Shown: in pieces, positions 3,274 through 33,543 of the stretch
How the letters are laid out: each line of letters opens with the position of its first letter
Numbering within the stretch: position 1 is the first letter of the stretch
Source: Acidobacteriota bacterium
GTDB taxonomy: Bacteria > Acidobacteriota > Thermoanaerobaculia > Gp7-AA8
Direction of reading: 5' to 3'
DNA: 64,000 bases
Assembly: GCA_019244185.1 (NCBI GenBank)
Contig: JAFATB010000006.1
Location: 320,001-384,000 of the forward strand
Translations under genes and position numbers: made by a program
The notes under the pieces: generated by a model
The model's database searches: none
Seen by the model: the letters and a program-made list of their open reading frames with translations, nothing else
Told to the model about the DNA's origin: nothing

Positions 3274-3382
3274 AAAAGCTGAATGAAGAATGCAGAACGC
3301 AGAATGAAGAATTGAGAAAGCGCGCCGGTCGCCTCCTTTCTACGTTCTTCATTCTGCGTTCTGCATTCTTCATTCAGCTTTT
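3274..3382. repeat. Palindromic heptamer-based dispersed repeat, copy 2
   Basis: aaaagctgaatgaagaatgcagaacgcagaatgaagaattgagaaag ... ctttctacgttcttcattctgcgttctgcattcttcattcagctttt, between tRNA-Leu and tig. Confidence 0.9.
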
Positions 3383-24151: not shown

Positions 24152-24257
24152 GAAAAGCTGAATGAAGAATGCAGAACGCAGAATGAAGAATTGAGAAAGG
24201 GGACCGGCGCGGGTTCTCAATTCTTCATTCTGCGTTCTGCGTTCTTCATTCATCCTT
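24152..24257. repeat. Palindromic heptamer-based dispersed repeat, copy 3
   Basis: gaaaagctgaatgaagaatgcagaacgcagaatgaagaattgagaa ... ttctcaattcttcattctgcgttctgcgttcttcattca, between divergent genes. Confidence 0.9.
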
Positions 24258-27905: not shown

Positions 27906-28190
27906 CTAGGTGCGCGTGGTGCCGGCGGGCGCTGCCGCGCCTGCACCGACACCGCCGCCGCCTTCGCCGGGGCCGAGGGCCGGACGGGCCACGGTCGACG
28001 TGATGCCGACGGCTTCCGCGTACTTGAGGTACGTATCGATCGATGCGATGACGACGCGGGCCTCAACGGTGATCAGGTCGATACCGACGAGAGAGATGCG
28101 AACCCACGCGTCGACGACGATACCTTTGTCGAGAATGCGGTCCAGTACGTCGATGAGACTGGTTCCGCCTGGGGCGCGTTCAACAGCCAT
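27906..28190 (-). CDS. gvpA: Gas vesicle structural protein GvpA
   Basis: [52 protein letters not shown], canonical GvpA core, plus a Gly/Ala-rich tail. Confidence 0.97.
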
Positions 28191-28193
28191 GAC

Positions 28194-28571
28194 TTACCTG
28201 CCTTTCCTCTCTCCAGGCTTCCCGGCGGGAAGCTCGCGTGCATTGAGTTGACGTTCGAGATCCGCGATGCGGTTGCGCAGCTCGTCGTACTCCTCGGCGC
28301 CGCGCAACGCGCGCGGGTCGCTCGAGTAGAAACGGTCCGAGCGCCACCAGTTGATGCCGATCGCCTCCGCCTTGTCGATCGAACAGATCACGAGGCGCAG
28401 CTGGATCGTCAGCAGCTCGACGTTCGCCAGCGAGACCTTCACGTCTCCGGCGACCACGAGCCCCTTGTCCAGGATTTTGTCGAGGATGTCGACCAACCCC
28501 TGCGGCTGCCGCTGGAGCGATCCTCCCCGATCATCGATAGGCAATCGCGACTCCCATCTTCGAGTGCTCAC
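28194..28571 (-). CDS. gvpJ: Gas vesicle protein GvpJ
   Basis: GLVDILDKILDKGLVVAGDVKVSLANVELLTIQLRLVICSIDKAEAIGINWW, coiled-coil tail. Start may be a downstream TTG. Confidence 0.9.
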   Translation of the reverse strand: MSTRRWESRLPIDDRGGSLQRQPQGLVDILDKILDKGLVVAGDVKVSLANVELLTIQLRLVICSIDKAEAIGINWWRSDRFYSSDPRALRGAEEYDELRNRIADLERQLNARELPAGKPGERKGR

Positions 28572-28602
28572 CTTTTAACGGTGCCGCATCCGCGAGTCAA
28601 CA

Positions 28603-28929
28603 TCATTCCCACATCTTTACCGGGCCCAGCTTGAGATTCAGATCTTCGTCGGACAGGCCGAACGTGCGCTTGAGCTCCGCCATCTTTTCCTCGAGCTTCA
28701 TGAGCGCCGCGCCGACGCGCTCGATCTCGTCGTCGGTGAGGTTGCCCGCGTCCATGCGGCGCAGCGCCTGCTTCTCGAGCAGCTTCCGCACGAGCTCGAC
28801 GATCGACAGCACGAGCTTCGCGAGCCCGTTCTCGACGATCTCCGAGTCGGCGGCGATGCGCTCCGGCACGACCGACTCCGCGAACGTGAGCGCGCGCCGC
28901 AGCTGCTCTTCTTCATTGGTCAGCATCAT
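28603..28929 (-). CDS. gvpK: Gas vesicle protein GvpK
   Basis: GLAKLVLSIVELVRKLLEKQALRRMDAGNLTDDEIERVGAALMKLEE...FGLSDEDLNLKLGP. Confidence 0.93.
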   Translation of the reverse strand: MMLTNEEEQLRRALTFAESVVPERIAADSEIVENGLAKLVLSIVELVRKLLEKQALRRMDAGNLTDDEIERVGAALMKLEEKMAELKRTFGLSDEDLNLKLGPVKMWE

Positions 28930-29557
28930 CGGCGAAGACCTCCAGCGGCCACGGACCCGACAGCAGAAACGGCACCTGCGCGCACGTGCGGCGCAACTCC
29001 TCGCCGGCGGCGCGCACGTCCTCGACGCGCGCACGCGGCACGAGCGCCGCGAGCTCGATCGACTTCTCGTCGCGATGACTCCAGCGATGTTTTTTGGCGA
29101 ACGGAAGGATGCGCGCCTCTGCTTCTTTCACGAACGCCGGATCGGCGGCGGACGCGTTCGTGGCCTCGTGCAGCGCGCGCAGATACTCCGCGCCGCTCGT
29201 GAAGTCCCGACGATCGGGACGCGGACGCGCGGCAGCGGCGGCGGCTTTCAGCGTCATCTCGACGTCGTCGCGATGCGCGTCGAGGAGACGCGTCCAGCGC
29301 GGCAGATGCGCGGCGCACTTCGACTCCCCTTCCGCGGAGTCGCGCACGGCGAGGCCGTAGCGGATGGCCACGAACGTCGCGCGGTCGAGCAGCCGCGCGC
29401 GCAGCTTCGCGACTGCGACGAGCAGCTCGCGGTCCGAGACCGGCTGCTCGTCCGCGATCGGCAACGCGCTCAGAAAGAGCTCACCGCACGCGAGCGCCTC
29501 GGCAGGCGCGTCGATGTCGTCGCGCCGGCGATGCGCGCCGATGACGACGAATCTCAT
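28913..29557 (-). CDS. Divergent GvpL/GvpF-family protein
   Basis: FVAIRYG, VEMTLK, SGAEYL, LAALVPR, C-terminal SGPWPLEVF; coupled to its neighbours. Confidence 0.75.
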   Translation of the reverse strand: MRFVVIGAHRRRDDIDAPAEALACGELFLSALPIADEQPVSDRELLVAVAKLRARLLDRATFVAIRYGLAVRDSAEGESKCAAHLPRWTRLLDAHRDDVEMTLKAAAAAARPRPDRRDFTSGAEYLRALHEATNASAADPAFVKEAEARILPFAKKHRWSHRDEKSIELAALVPRARVEDVRAAGEELRRTCAQVPFLLSGPWPLEVFADDADQ

Positions 29558-29730
29558 CGCTTCGATGTCCGGATGACCGCGTCGACGTTTGCGAGGATGA
29601 CGTTCAGGCCGAGGTAGAGAAGGTCCACGTCGCCGATCGACACGATCGCTTCGCCGGCGATGACCACGCCGCGATCGAGCAGATGATCGAGCATCTCCAG
29701 CAGCGCGAGTTCTTCGACGTTCTCAGACAT
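29554..29730 (-). CDS. Small GvpA/J-family gas vesicle protein (GvpS/GvpM-like), 58 aa
   Basis: Below the ORF-track cut-off. Manual translation: MSENVEELALLEMLDHLLDRGVVIAGEAIVSIGDVDLLYLGLNVILANVDAVIRTSKR; ATGA overlap with the next gene. Confidence 0.9.
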   Translation of the reverse strand: MSENVEELALLEMLDHLLDRGVVIAGEAIVSIGDVDLLYLGLNVILANVDAVIRTSKR

Positions 29731-29733
29731 GGT

Positions 29734-30504
29734 TCAGTCGTGGGCAAACGAGTACGGCGGCCACGGCCCGCTCACGCCAACCACCACGCCTTCACCGGCG
29801 TAGCGATCCATGAGCGTCGCGTGCAACTCCTGCAAAGCCGCTTCCTCGTCGCGCTCGAGAAGGATGTTGATCTGTGGAAACGCGCCGTCGCGCCGCTCGC
29901 GCGTCTCCGCGAACGTCTCGCAGCGGAGGCTGCCGGCGACGGCCTGCTCGATCTCCGCGACGACGTTCTGCTCGGCCTCGCGCGACGCGCGCTTCTTCTC
30001 GTCGTCGAGCTTCTTGCGCAGCAGGAACGCGCGTCCCGGCGGCGCGGCGGCGATCTGCGCCTGCAGCTCGCGCAGCGACTCCGCACGCGCGACCAGCGCC
30101 TCGCTCCAGCGCGCCGGCTCGAACTCGACGCGCAGCGTCCACTCCTGCTTGTCGCCGAGGCGCTCGAGCTGCGCGCCTAACAAATGCGCGTGCTCGTGCA
30201 GATACGCGCGCAACGCGTCGGCGCCGGAGAAGAGCGTGAACGCGCGAAGCGGCACGATCGCGGTCAGCTTCATCAATTCGGCGACGACGGCCTGATGCCG
30301 GTAGCCGATCGCGCCGAGCCATTCGAGATCGTTCGCGCGGCGGTCGATCACCTCCTGCGACAGCTCCGCGGACGGCATGGCCGTGAAGACCGCGGCGATG
30401 CCGTCGCTCTCCGCGACGCCGAAGCGACGCGTGCCGTCGATGCCGTCCGTGTCCGGCGTGGCCGGCTCGCGCGTCACGGCGTAGACGTAGAGAACGGTGT
30501 CCAA
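29734..30504 (-). CDS. gvpL: Gas vesicle protein GvpL (GvpL/GvpF family)
   Basis: LYVYAV, HQAVVAEL, VPLRAFTLF, EWTLRV, PGRAFLLRKKL, SGPWPPYSF. Confidence 0.88.
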   Translation of the reverse strand: MDTVLYVYAVTREPATPDTDGIDGTRRFGVAESDGIAAVFTAMPSAELSQEVIDRRANDLEWLGAIGYRHQAVVAELMKLTAIVPLRAFTLFSGADALRAYLHEHAHLLGAQLERLGDKQEWTLRVEFEPARWSEALVARAESLRELQAQIAAAPPGRAFLLRKKLDDEKKRASREAEQNVVAEIEQAVAGSLRCETFAETRERRDGAFPQINILLERDEEAALQELHATLMDRYAGEGVVVGVSGPWPPYSFAHD

Positions 30505-30521
30505 GAGCGAAACTATAAAAC

Positions 30522-30638
30522 GAATGAAGAACGCAGAACGCAGAATGAAGAACGTAGAAGCGGCACGGCGCGCCGGTCAACGCGCCCGCATCGCGGCGGT
30601 TTCTACATTCTGCGTTCTGCGTTCTGCGTTCTTCATTC
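30522..30638. repeat. Palindromic heptamer-based dispersed repeat, copy 4
   Basis: gaatgaagaacgcagaacgcagaatgaagaacgtagaa ... ttctacattctgcgttctgcgttctgcgttcttcattc; the right arm contains the stop codon of the ArsA-like gene. Confidence 0.88.
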
Positions 30639-32429
30639 AACGATCGGCACCAAGGCCGCCAGCTCATCCGCTGTCATCGGCGGCGCATCGCGGCGTTCGA
30701 TCAGCACCGCATCCGGCAACGTCGCGAGCGCCATCAGCTCATCCGCGCGTCGTGCGCAATCGCACGCGCAGTCGTTCTCCGGCGTCACGTAGTTCGCGAT
30801 GACGGAGCTCACGCGCAGGCCGCGCTGCGCGACGTCGTCGATGAGGCGCCGCGTCTCGGCAACGACGATGCGCTCGGGTCGCGTGACGACGATAACGGCC
30901 GTGTCGCGCGAACGCAGCGTCGCCTCGAGCTCGCGCATCGCGCGCGATGCATGAACGAGCTCTTCGCCGAGGGAGCCGGCGGGGACGAGGTCCTTGTAGC
31001 GGAGGAGGAGGCGCATGAACTCGCGGACCCATTCCGTGGCCGTCGACGGCAGATCGAGCAGGCGCAGGAAGTGTCCCGTCGGCGCGGTGTCGATGACGAC
31101 GCCGGCGAGCGTTTCATCGCCGAACAGATCGGCGAGGCGCGTGATCGCGAAGAGCTCGTCGGCGCCCGGCGGCGCGATGTCGATGAGCCGGCGCACGGCT
31201 TCCGTGTCGTGCTCGATGGAGACGCCGCGCGGCGTCAGCGCGTCGACCGCACGCTCGATCTCCGCGCCGAGGGTCGCGCGAAAGCGTTCCCACTTTGCGC
31301 GCGTGTCGATCAGCTCGACCGTGAGGTTCGGCGGCGGCGCGTTGTGCGCGAAGACGTCGCGCAGCGAATGCGCGGGATCGACGGAGAGCACGACGTAGCG
31401 CTTTTCCGGATTCGCGCGCGCGAGCTGCAACGCGATCGAGCTCGCACACGACGTCTTTCCCACGCCGCCCTTGCCCGCCAAAAACGTGAAGCGTGCGACG
31501 TCGACACGCGCGTTCGTCGCACGCGGCGTCGTTGCCTCGGTAGCGAGACCGCGCGACTCGCCGCGCAGCCACGCGCGGATCGCGTCGAACGAATCGAGCG
31601 GCGTGCACGCGCGCGGCGCATCGACGACCCTCGCGAACCGCGCCCGCGCCTCGGCATCCCGCTCCGCGAGCTCGCGGTCGCGCGCGCAATCGGCGTCGCG
31701 CACCGCACGGTTCAGGACGACGAAGGGGACGTGAATGTCCGCGTTGCGCACCGTGCGCAGCGTCTGCTCGACGACGAGCGGCTCGGAGAGCATCACCGGC
31801 ACGAACGCCGCGCGCGCGGGATCGTGGAGCAGCTCGCGCCGCGCGCGCGCCCGCGCATCGAAGTCGTCGATGAACGCGTCCATCGCATCGCGCACCTCGC
31901 GCCGCGTGAACTGGTAGACCAGCGCGCGATGCTTCTCCTCCATCGCGTCGAGCGCCGCCGCGAGCTGGCGGAAATGCTCTGAGGCCGACAGCATCCGCTC
32001 CGTGTGTCCCGTCGGCGCGGTGTCGACGACGACGAGCGCACCGGCGTTCTGCTCAACCAGCTCGCCGATGCGCATCCACGCCATCAGCTCGTCGATGCCG
32101 GGCAGCGCGAGCTCCATCAGCCGCCGCAGTTCGTCGCGATCGAGGTACGTGCCGCGGTCGGCGATGGTCAGGAACGACTCGAGATGCTCGCCGAGAAAAC
32201 GCGCGTAGAGCGCGCGGGCATCGAGCGACTCGATGGTGAGATTCGGCGGCGGCGACGACGTGAAATCGCCGAGGTTCGAGGCGGGATCGGTCGTGAAGAG
32301 GATGGTAGGGCGCGAGTCGGAGTAATGCAGCGCGGCCGCGGTCGAGAGCGTGGTCTTGCCGACGCCGCCTTTGCCGCCGAAGAGCACCACGCGGCGCGAC
32401 GCGAGCTCGTCGAGCTCGGAGAGGATCAT
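30633..32429 (-). CDS. ArsA/Get3-family ATPase with two fused ATPase domains
   Basis: Two P-loops (GKGGVGKTT, GKGGVGKTS), two switch I (DPASNL, DPAHSL), two switch II (DTAPTGH); Get3-type LPGIDEL/PPGADEL; Cys cluster DCACDCARR. ATG 32429 overlaps the gvpG stop. Confidence 0.92.
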   Translation of the reverse strand: MILSELDELASRRVVLFGGKGGVGKTTLSTAAALHYSDSRPTILFTTDPASNLGDFTSSPPPNLTIESLDARALYARFLGEHLESFLTIADRGTYLDRDELRRLMELALPGIDELMAWMRIGELVEQNAGALVVVDTAPTGHTERMLSASEHFRQLAAALDAMEEKHRALVYQFTRREVRDAMDAFIDDFDARARARRELLHDPARAAFVPVMLSEPLVVEQTLRTVRNADIHVPFVVLNRAVRDADCARDRELAERDAEARARFARVVDAPRACTPLDSFDAIRAWLRGESRGLATEATTPRATNARVDVARFTFLAGKGGVGKTSCASSIALQLARANPEKRYVVLSVDPAHSLRDVFAHNAPPPNLTVELIDTRAKWERFRATLGAEIERAVDALTPRGVSIEHDTEAVRRLIDIAPPGADELFAITRLADLFGDETLAGVVIDTAPTGHFLRLLDLPSTATEWVREFMRLLLRYKDLVPAGSLGEELVHASRAMRELEATLRSRDTAVIVVTRPERIVVAETRRLIDDVAQRGLRVSSVIANYVTPENDCACDCARRADELMALATLPDAVLIERRDAPPMTADELAALVPIVE

Positions 32430-32749
32430 CGGTCGCCGTAGCCGGTGTAGATCCCGATGCCGCCTTCGTCTTCGTCGCGCTCGGCCGCGTACTGGCGCGT
32501 GATCGCCTCGCGGCGCGCGCGGATGTCGCGCAGCGCCTGAAACACGATCGCTTCCTCGCGCGTGTACTCCTCTTCCGTGAGCTCGCCGAGCTCGAGCTGC
32601 ATCTGCAGCTCGATCAGCCGTTCCTTCCACGGCTGATCGTTCATCAGTTCCTCATCCGCCATCTTCTGGATCGTGTTCATGACCCACCGAAAGCCCGCGA
32701 TCGGGCCTTTCAGCGGGAGCATGAGGATGTCGTCGAGGAGAAACGCCAT
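32426..32749 (-). CDS. gvpG: Gas vesicle protein GvpG
   Basis: MAFLLDDILMLPLKGPIAGFRWVMNTIQKMADEEL...LELGELTEEEYTREE; directly after gvpF (TGATG overlap). Confidence 0.88.
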   Translation of the reverse strand: MAFLLDDILMLPLKGPIAGFRWVMNTIQKMADEELMNDQPWKERLIELQMQLELGELTEEEYTREEAIVFQALRDIRARREAITRQYAAERDEDEGGIGIYTGYGDR

Positions 32750-33543
32750 CAGCGTTCTGCTCTCTCCAGTTTGAGCCGGATGTTCACGAAGTTGTACGGC
32801 GGCCACGGCCCCGTGTAGAGGAACGAGAGCTTGTTCTCGTACTTTTTCGCGATGTCGGAGATCTGATCGTCGAAGGCTTTGGTCTTGTCGCGCTCGACGA
32901 GGAACGCGGCGTTCATGATCATCTTGTCGCCGATCGGCTTGTTCGACCGCGACGCGATCGCGGCGTCGCGCAGCGCCTCGTAGATCTCGGTCACGTACAG
33001 ATCGGCCTTCGCCTGCAGCGCGGACTCGACGACGCGCCCGAGCTGCATGCGCGAGAAGTACGTGGAGGTCGACGTCGACGACTGGATCTCTTCCTTCAGC
33101 CGCCGGATCTCCTCGTTCTCGTTTTCGATCTCTTTGACGACCTGGTCTTTGTCCCAGTTCACCTTGAGACCGAACTCGATCTTCCCTTCCATCTTCTGCA
33201 GCACGTCGCTGAGCGCCTCGTAGGTGCCTTTGAGGAACTCTTTGATGTCGTTCTCGGTGCGGAAGACGGTGCCGAAGCTCATCGGCAGCACGGTGAAGTC
33301 CTTCATCACGAGCTCGTTGACGTGCTCGTGCGCGAGCGCGTTCTCACGCGTCGGATCGAACACGATCAGCGGACAGTTCGACACGACCGCCGCGAACTCG
33401 CGGTAGTGAACGGTGTGAACTTTGTCGCCGCGCCCGCCGATGCCGACCGTGCCGAAGTCGCGCGGCGTCTCGGTTTTGATGATGCAGTAAACGTATTTGC
33501 CCTGTTCGGTATCGGAATCAGTTCCCTGAAGCTGCTCGCTCAT
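32749..33543 (-). CDS. gvpF: Gas vesicle protein GvpF
   Basis: GKYVYCII, ALAHEHVNE, TVLPMSFGTVF, IEFGLKV, MNAAFLV, TGPWPPYNFV. Confidence 0.93.
   Translation of the reverse strand: MSEQLQGTDSDTEQGKYVYCIIKTETPRDFGTVGIGGRGDKVHTVHYREFAAVVSNCPLIVFDPTRENALAHEHVNELVMKDFTVLPMSFGTVFRTENDIKEFLKGTYEALSDVLQKMEGKIEFGLKVNWDKDQVVKEIENENEEIRRLKEEIQSSTSTSTYFSRMQLGRVVESALQAKADLYVTEIYEALRDAAIASRSNKPIGDKMIMNAAFLVERDKTKAFDDQISDIAKKYENKLSFLYTGPWPPYNFVNIRLKLERAER

Follow-up and report, generated by a model that had tools for sequence, protein, structure and literature searches.

The window analyzed here is a 64,000-nucleotide stretch of an Acidobacteriota bacterium genome (GCA_019244185.1, contig JAFATB010000006.1, forward-strand positions 320,001 to 384,000), and the system in question is a gas-vesicle (gvp) gene cluster on its minus strand with a gene for a tandem ATPase of the Get3/ArsA fold embedded in it. 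Gas vesicles are used as acoustic and magnetic resonance imaging reporters, and their assembly is poorly understood. An earlier reading of the letters alone, made without database searches (the sequence-only reading), had given the gene order as gvpF-gvpG-ATPase-gvpL-gvpS-gvpL'-gvpK-gvpJ-gvpA and had proposed that the ATPase acts in place of GvpN. Open reading frames (ORFs) and Pfam and NCBIfam searches confirmed the order. Profile scores, a tree of half-domains and gene neighborhoods show that the 598-residue ATPase is a member of a widespread, gvp-dedicated Get3/ArsA-fold ATPase clade. The substitution for GvpN was not supported.

All nine gene products scored above the Pfam gathering score, and the gvpA product also exceeded the NCBIfam GvpA model NF006874 (118 bits versus a cut-off of 100). 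The profile searches returned a complete shell and accessory set, GvpA with proteins of the GvpF/L, G, J, K and M/S types (Table 1; the start of gvpK was placed via alignment to relatives). The genome (5.30 Mb, 26 contigs, 98.9% complete) has three GvpA-family and three GvpF/L genes, all inside this cluster, which is flanked by a divergent mutY and a convergent S9 peptidase gene. The locus is a gvp cluster of a Thermoanaerobaculia-type acidobacterium with a real nine-gene set. Its F-G-L-S-K-J-A architecture, in which no GvpN was found and no GvpC was matched, is of a type common in soil bacteria. The F-G-L-S-K-J order had been likened to that of Bacillus megaterium, and this agrees with the cluster gvpAPQBRNFGLSKJTU given for that organism in the accessible part of a review (Pfeifer 2022, PMC9501494).

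Table 1. Features of the gas-vesicle cluster, in transcription order (positions in the window).
Feature	Position	Strand	Description
gvpF	32749-33543	minus	264 aa; Pfam GvpL_GvpF 258.5 bits
gvpG	32426-32749	minus	107 aa; Pfam GvpG 60.6 bits
Tandem Get3/ArsA-like SIMIBI ATPase	30633-32429	minus	598 aa; Pfam ArsA_ATPase, two stretches, 254.6 bits
REP-like palindromic hairpin	30522-30638	minus	117 nt; RNA fold -76.2 kcal/mol, z -6.75
gvpL	29734-30504	minus	256 aa, TTG start; Pfam GvpL_GvpF 148 bits
gvpS, small GvpA-family, GvpM-like	29554-29730	minus	58 aa; Pfam Gas_vesicle 46.9 bits
gvpL', divergent GvpF/L	28913-29557	minus	214 aa; Pfam GvpL_GvpF 40.6 bits
gvpK	28603-28929	minus	108 aa; Pfam GvpK 111.7 bits
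gvpJ	28194-28571	minus	125 aa; Pfam Gas_vesicle 60.1 bits
gvpA, shell protein	27906-28190	minus	94 aa; Pfam Gas_vesicle 61.1 bits

In an alignment of 32 homologs, the gvpG product starts with a hydrophobic N-terminal helix, continues as a helical middle part and ends in a conserved tail, GIGIYTGYG. The tail (32426-32460) is kept in Thermoanaerobaculia-type GvpG, and GvpG of other cluster types is without it. GvpA carries a Gly/Ala-rich C-terminal extension of ~20 residues past the region covered by GvpA models.

The stop codon of gvpG overlaps the start of the ATPase gene in the tetranucleotide ATGA, which was read in the sequence as the earlier reading had described it. By ORF coordinates, the junctions not being read base by base, gvpS and gvpL' overlap by 4 nt and gvpF and gvpG by one base. 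The description of the cluster as an operon needs a correction: its continuity is broken by a hairpin of the repetitive extragenic palindromic (REP) type between the ATPase gene and gvpL. This long palindromic repeat element lies in the 128 nt that separate the stop codon of the ATPase gene from the start of gvpL, and a U-rich stretch follows the hairpin. Most relatives have just 15-40 nt at this junction. The window holds four such REP-like palindromes, at 1893-1970, 3295-3361 and 24174-24244 besides the one in Table 1, made of GAACGCAGAA(C/T)G repeats (13 motif matches versus 0.4 expected in the window). The hairpin could act as an attenuator, a terminator or an mRNA stabilizer, and because it lies between the ATPase gene and gvpL a single nine-gene transcript is not assured. 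In a consensus scan there were no promoter-like sites and 7 terminator-like ones (3.8 ± 2.2 expected), a result judged uninformative. The sequencing runs that hold the locus comprise six DNA metagenome runs and no RNA run.

Family and conservation of the tandem ATPase

The nucleotide-site motifs are intact in both halves of the ATPase (N half, ~residues 1-295; C half, ~310-598). Walker A (GKGGVGKT) begins at residues 19 and 319, switch I (DPA) at residues 48 and 351, and switch II (DTAPTGH) at residues 136 and 447; PGIDE is found at residue 110 and PGADE at residue 421. The motifs bear out the two fused SIMIBI domains, the PG(I/A)DE signatures and the C-terminal cysteine cluster of the sequence-only reading. 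The protein scored 242.9 bits against the GET3/ArsA/TRC40 model TIGR00345 (cut-off 135) and fell far below the true-ArsA equivalog TIGR04291 (149 bits versus a cut-off of 650). Of 18 non-gvp tandem proteins taken as controls from a metagenome sample, 16 passed TIGR04291 with 714-950 bits. The ATPase is the only real ArsA-family protein in its genome. Its family comprises 504 clusters at 50% identity (E <= 1e-30), mostly of ~650 aa.

Get3/TRC40 is a targeting factor for tail-anchored proteins. By sequence (phmmer), the closest solved structure was Chlamydomonas ARSA1 (5zme, 151.6 bits), which we take to be a fused tandem Get3-type tail-anchor targeting factor; ArsA structures scored 99-111 bits and Get3 monomers ~78 bits. 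ArsA has three metalloid-binding cysteines (E. coli numbering 113/172/422). In the phmmer alignment with Leptospirillum ferriphilum ArsA, three cysteines in the aligned stretches of that protein face non-cysteine residues in the ATPase. An AlphaFold2 (AF2) model built from an 80-sequence family alignment had a predicted local distance difference test score (pLDDT) of 91.4 and a predicted template modeling score of 0.92. The model is a closed pseudo-dimer with a template modeling score of 0.71/0.74 to closed ArsA in Foldseek, and Get3 chains each match one half of it. Foldseek was rejected as a test of ArsA versus Get3. Its full-length ranking sets ArsA above ARSA1, and the ranking is unsuited because whole-chain scores vary with whether a structure is open or closed and a Get3 chain spans just one half.

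A tree of half-domains (78 rows) was calculated by a quick IQ-TREE run with Shimodaira-Hasegawa approximate likelihood ratio test (SH-aLRT) support only and a midpoint root. It held this protein and 18 gvp-linked tandem proteins, a hand-picked subset of those fetched, together with 12 of 16 true ArsA proteins, two other tandem proteins, two gvp-linked single-domain proteins and 10 of 44 further single-domain proteins. The true ArsA halves fell on the opposite side of an SH-aLRT 99 branch from the gvp ATPase halves. The 19 gvp N halves form one group (86), the 19 gvp C halves form another (97), and the two groups are sisters (83). The tree of halves therefore derives the gvp tandem ATPase from its own duplication, separate from that of ArsA. 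The assignment to Get3/TRC40-like proteins rather than ArsA is upheld by the TIGR scores, the PDB matches and this tree. The tandem gvp halves are sister (93) to single-domain ATPases of GvpN-type gvp clusters, which may resemble the pre-duplication form. At two loci (L054:6272-7204 and L063:9977-10951) a single-domain Get3/ArsA-like ATPase of 311-325 aa is encoded between gvpN and gvpF genes.

Gene neighborhoods were compared at 15 related genome loci, 14 from metagenome-assembled genomes (MAGs) labeled Thermoanaerobaculia and one from an unclassified Acidobacteriota MAG, and at 80 metagenome loci picked by a generic Walker-A pattern, which were the sole coverage of other phyla. The gvpG gene lies directly upstream of the ATPase gene in 15 of 15 related loci, gvpL-S-L'-K-J-A is kept in 10 of the 11 that have downstream sequence, and the mutY and S9-peptidase flanks recur. 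Where the start could be placed, gvpG and the ATPase gene overlap by 4-14 nt in 15 of 17 near-relative loci. The ATPase is 54-72% identical among relatives and the flanking mutY product 54-78%, a likeness that indicates maintenance of the ATPase by selection. GvpF is 84-95% identical in the 13 related loci with the whole gene, and GvpA is 82-100% identical among relatives. Metagenome loci with a match of at least 170 bits had gvp neighbors in 13 of 14 cases. Among the weaker loci, 5 of 66 did (L054, L057, L062, L063 and L107): two single-domain ATPases in GvpN-type clusters, two tandem fragments at contig ends next to gvpF-gvpG, and L057, likewise a fragment at a contig end, with gvpJ as its neighbor. 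Conservation beside gvp genes, on which the earlier proposal depended, was borne out by the related loci and by the strong metagenome matches.

The clusters vary in detail. Unrelated ORFs of 967 aa and 639 aa stand between the ATPase gene and gvpL (L007:4570-7473 and L010:10014-11933), and an unrelated ~320-aa ORF stands between gvpF and gvpG (L005:8693-9664 and L015:4266-5222). One genome (G112; loci L021 and L022) has a split cluster, with mutY and gvpF-G-ATPase at one locus and gvpL-S-L'-K-J-A at another. No gvpL to gvpA genes were seen in the 10 kb downstream of the ATPase gene at L012, and the F-G pair lies downstream of gvpA in G194 and G389.

The cysteines of the ATPase are residues 248, 275, 328, 554, 556 and 558. 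The CACDC sequence at residues 554-558 stands where Get3 has its CXXC zinc motif. In the 80-sequence alignment the family consensus shows a CXXC in each half, and each follows the conserved Asn of the last strand. The C-terminal cysteine cluster is thus present as claimed, but it is no oddity, since it sits at the Get3 CXXC position and belongs to the family consensus of both halves. In the alignment rows read at P0001 residues 236-262 and 544-572, most proteins have a CXXC in each half or in neither, as would be expected if the halves form one metal site jointly. The zinc site of Get3 is formed jointly by two subunits, according to the accessible part of Bodensohn et al. 2019 (PMC6593721). 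Thermoanaerobaculia-type proteins have a remodeled site. Their C half reads CxCD(R/C), and the N half has CxCxxC in the near relatives P0003 and P0006 and a single Cys here and in the closest representative, P0002. Cys248 together with Cys554, Cys556 and Cys558 could supply four ligands, although in a non-canonical spacing.

The ATPase and GvpN

A gvpN gene elsewhere in the genome would speak against a substitution for GvpN, and none was found. The best match to the GvpN model was 22 bits (cut-off 266.8), and the model gave 336-351 bits in five other Acidobacteriota genomes that served as a positive control. The 22-bit match (G000:C6:318599-318739), a short way upstream of the window (L001) and ~30 kb from the cluster, is a 451-aa open frame that contains a generic AAA-type P-loop. 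GvpN was also not found in eight gvp-positive genomes of the same family, order and class (98-100% complete) or in five genomes holding related loci (completeness not stated). ArsB, Acr3 and ArsD were not found in the genome, and their models matched in 5-7, 5 and 2 control genomes, respectively. The claimed lack of gvpN, gvpO, gvpC and ars genes holds for GvpN, Acr3, ArsB and ArsD; the GvpO and GvpC models gave no match in the genome but had no positive control, and absence of these two is not claimed.

A census of 401 Acidobacteriota genomes returned 21 with gvpA-family genes above the cut-off. The ATPase is encoded in or next to the gvp genes and GvpN is absent in 13 of these, both are present in 2 (G152 and G244), GvpN only is found in 3 (G232, G262 and G382), and neither is found in 3 (G370, G173 and G250, the last 83% complete), where gvpG is followed directly by gvpL. 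The genomes are kin, and hence no statistical claim is attached to this table. The anti-correlation of the ATPase with GvpN that the sequence-only reading had named for testing is seen as an enrichment of the ATPase in GvpN-less clusters, but strict exclusion fails at the two genomes with both. GvpN is also encoded within a few kilobases of the tandem ATPase in four metagenome loci (L039, L040, L042 and L046). In the ATPase tree the GvpN-type clusters are one subclade within the family (99 in both halves), which means that the ATPase does not occur solely where GvpN is missing. The proposal that the ATPase works in place of GvpN is not supported, given these six cases of the same ATPase clade beside GvpN and the three GvpN-less clusters that are also without the ATPase.

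The three ATPase-less clusters were placed with a GvpF tree, used solely for this purpose, in which they nest with the ATPase-bearing loci L025, L028 and L049 (SH-aLRT 100). Because they nest among bearers of the gvp-clade ATPase, they appear to have lost it. From its distribution and phylogeny, the ATPase looks like an old, frequent and dispensable member of gvp clusters that co-exists with GvpN and is not a general substitute for it.

Possible role of the ATPase

The reading that we prefer is that the gvp-linked, Get3-like tandem ATPase is an accessory helper for a Gvp-protein client; taken together, this identity, mechanism and role seem to us evenly poised between right and wrong. The protein would work as a pseudo-dimeric SIMIBI ATPase whose halves close on ATP. 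At the Get3 CXXC position, Cys248 and Cys554/556/558 would form a cysteine/zinc staple that keeps the halves joined, and a stretch of a Gvp protein, hydrophobic or amphipathic in character, would be bound by the pair of helical subdomains. GvpG, the translationally coupled neighbor, is the first candidate client, with GvpA, GvpJ and GvpS as alternatives. Hydrolysis of ATP would then release the client at a nascent vesicle nucleated by GvpF/L. The ATPase would work next to GvpN where GvpN exists and would be evolutionarily dispensable.

Structure prediction of the ATPase with a Gvp partner, a check named in the sequence-only reading, was carried out with GvpG, which was chosen because it is the most constant neighbor. 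The ATPase-GvpG complex scored 0.33, compared with 0.00 for the best of three controls, which lends weak support to the pairing. Contact agreement between runs was at least 65%, and the pLDDT of GvpG was at least 64. Of 80 solved complexes, 58 passed the mark for a complex, as did 2 of 110 mismatched pairs; passes at a score of 0.60 or lower came from just 7 of the 80 solved complexes and from both of these mismatched pairs.

The composition of the 62 residues after switch II was compared as a crude indicator of the client-binding region. The hydrophobic fraction was 0.47-0.52 in gvp halves versus 0.39-0.40 in ArsA halves, and the Met count was 1.9-3.0 versus 1.0-1.2. One of 10 single-domain comparators matched the motif filter in this count. 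On this crude measure the gvp halves lie between ArsA and the expectation for Get3.

Several points weigh against the helper reading. At a GvpG complex score of 0.33, a pass is wrong in the majority of cases, except where the pairing was already likely before the prediction. The helical subdomains are also charge-rich (0.29-0.39), and the whole ATPase has just 12 Met in 598 residues. No separate helix-8 lid was found in the AF2 model by DSSP; loops of 6-7 residues stand at 176-181 and 478-484. A Get3-type hydrophobic groove in the ATPase is putative. The CXXC motif is degenerate in this protein: the N half has a single Cys there and the C half reads CxCxC. The designation Get3-like derives from hidden Markov model and PDB scores and from motifs, and the tree was built without eukaryotic or archaeal Get3. 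Client binding, ATP hydrolysis and zinc binding by the ATPase are predictions from its sequence, as is the formation of gas vesicles by this type of cluster from its genes. The three otherwise complete clusters without the ATPase mean that its role is not essential in all lineages.

The helper reading can be extended to a pathway resembling the guided entry of tail-anchored proteins (GET), in which delivery to a protein-shelled organelle is driven by ATP. These ATPases would capture hydrophobic segments of GvpG and/or GvpA-family proteins during synthesis and pass them to the GvpF/L nucleus, and they would be the sole energy-consuming assembly factor in GvpN-less soil-type clusters. This extended form is doubtful. 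If it is true, Get3-type chaperoning is older and broader than the membrane insertion of tail anchors. Should the ATPase turn out to act as a chaperone of shell proteins, better heterologous production of vesicles may become possible, and Get3-like proteins would gain a non-membrane client. The soil-type clusters with neither GvpN nor a recognized GvpC are a large class of which we know no experimental study, and we know of no test of function for the Get3-fold ATPase that they usually have.

An alternative is that the ATPase does not deliver subunits but is a general holdase switched by stress or redox state, like oxidized Get3, that guards aggregation-prone Gvp proteins, or else a ParA/MinD-like factor that positions or spaces vesicles. 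In its favor are the CXXC pairs that most family members keep in their two halves and the dispensability of the ATPase in some lineages. Excerpts of two papers add that Hsp20 is often found in such clusters (Castillo & Saier 2010, PMC2963123) and that tandem bacterial Get3 homologs may be general chaperones (Bodensohn et al. 2019, PMC6593721). Pfam found no Hsp20 among the nine genes of this cluster, however, and the tight, widespread linkage to gvpG and gvpS together with translational coupling argues for a gvp-specific partner. We consider a general holdase or organizer unlikely.

As a GvpN substitute, the ATPase would supply in GvpN-less clusters the energy-dependent step that falls to GvpN elsewhere, the enlargement of bicones to mature vesicles. 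According to the accessible part of Pfeifer 2022 (PMC9501494), enlargement in Haloferax transformants requires GvpN. No GvpN was found in this genome or in the five with related loci, and the census agrees in tendency, with 13 of 15 ATPase-bearing gvp genomes lacking GvpN and 3 of 6 ATPase-less ones having it. The tendency comes from related genomes and carries no statistical test, however, and it is opposed by the six cases of co-occurrence, by the position of the GvpN-type clusters as one subclade of the ATPase tree and by the three clusters that do without both proteins. The same review lists Streptomyces coelicolor as gvpOAFG-JLSK, with no N. A GvpN substitute of this kind is, on balance, quite improbable. 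That the protein is a true arsenite-pump ATPase ArsA lying in the gvp cluster by chance is extremely improbable, since the Pfam ArsA_ATPase match and the full-length Foldseek matches, the best of which are ArsA structures, are set against the TIGR04291 score, the cysteines without counterparts, the lack of Acr3, ArsB or ArsD in the genome, the SH-aLRT 99 branch, the conserved gvp-cluster position in Acidobacteriota genomes and unclassified metagenome contigs, and the occurrence of such clusters in four phyla (accessible part of Castillo & Saier 2010, PMC2963123).

Comparison with known systems

The locus had been put forward as a distinct gas-vesicle system, but a paper of 2010 (Castillo & Saier, PMC2963123) had already described both this architecture and the link of gvp genes with ArsA, also for Acidobacteria, and the result for this locus is mostly confirmatory. 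As far as the accessible part of that paper goes, two-domain ArsA homologs were found inside the gvp clusters of the four phyla, and the ATPase and GvpN were proposed to supply energy to functions that differ but are akin. On that proposal the ATPase powers a step in the biogenesis of vesicles other than the one powered by GvpN. The homologs of its clusters 4 and 6 are like the present protein, being tandem proteins of ~600-650 aa in gvp clusters without ars genes. The acidobacterial cluster described there has arsA, two L/F genes and J, K and M; N is not among the genes listed, and by this description the cluster matches the locus. The proteins were treated as ArsA homologs and energizers of transport, without a Get3 comparison in the accessible text. 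Relative to that set, the locus adds a Thermoanaerobaculia-type lineage and a degenerate cysteine site.

Tandem bacterial Get3 homologs with two Get3 domains per chain and CxxC motifs resemble the ATPase as well. In the accessible part of the paper that describes them (Bodensohn et al. 2019, PMC6593721), they are reported from Cyanobacteria, Myxococcales and some Proteobacteria, called unique and of unknown function, and suggested to be chaperones. A TRC40 insert is predicted in both of their domains, whereas the present protein has no separate lid helix and a degenerate CxxC. That paper nowhere uses the term "gas vesicle", and in the literature found the 2010 gvp link and the 2019 tandem CxxC Get3 proteins are not connected. 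A literature search, with supplements outside its reach, found no paper joining "gas vesicle" with "Get3", and none joining gvpN, gvpF and "arsenical pump-driving ATPase". Two papers that name gas vesicles, Acidobacteria and gvpA together deal with different topics, judging by title and abstract. Genome papers on Chloroploca and Nodularia mention ArsA outside a gvp context.

The locus also departs from the set that the accessible part of Pfeifer 2022 (PMC9501494) describes as conserved in all clusters (gvpA, gvpC and gvpFGKLN): GvpN is absent, and GvpC gave no match with a model that had no control. The review's own table is at odds with that set in its entry for S. coelicolor.

GvpN is likewise an ATPase of gvp clusters, but its fold is unrelated, AAA+ versus SIMIBI, and because the two proteins co-occur in many clusters they are not equivalents. 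ArsA (E. coli, 1f48; L. ferriphilum, 9nbw) shares the tandem architecture and the fold. It differs in that the gvp ATPase scores below the ArsA equivalog, is without the aligned cysteines, has no pump partner and arose by a separate duplication. Get3/TRC40 and ARSA1 share with the ATPase the SIMIBI fold, Walker A, the switch I Asp, DTAPTGH and cysteines at the position of the zinc site, and ARSA1 is likewise a fused pseudo-dimer (~24% identity in the Foldseek alignment). Get3 works with GET1/2/4/5 partners, whereas none is known for the gvp ATPase, for which no search for partners was made and whose neighbors are all gvp genes. The target of Get3 is a membrane; the wall of a gas vesicle is protein only, so the ATPase would have no lipid target.

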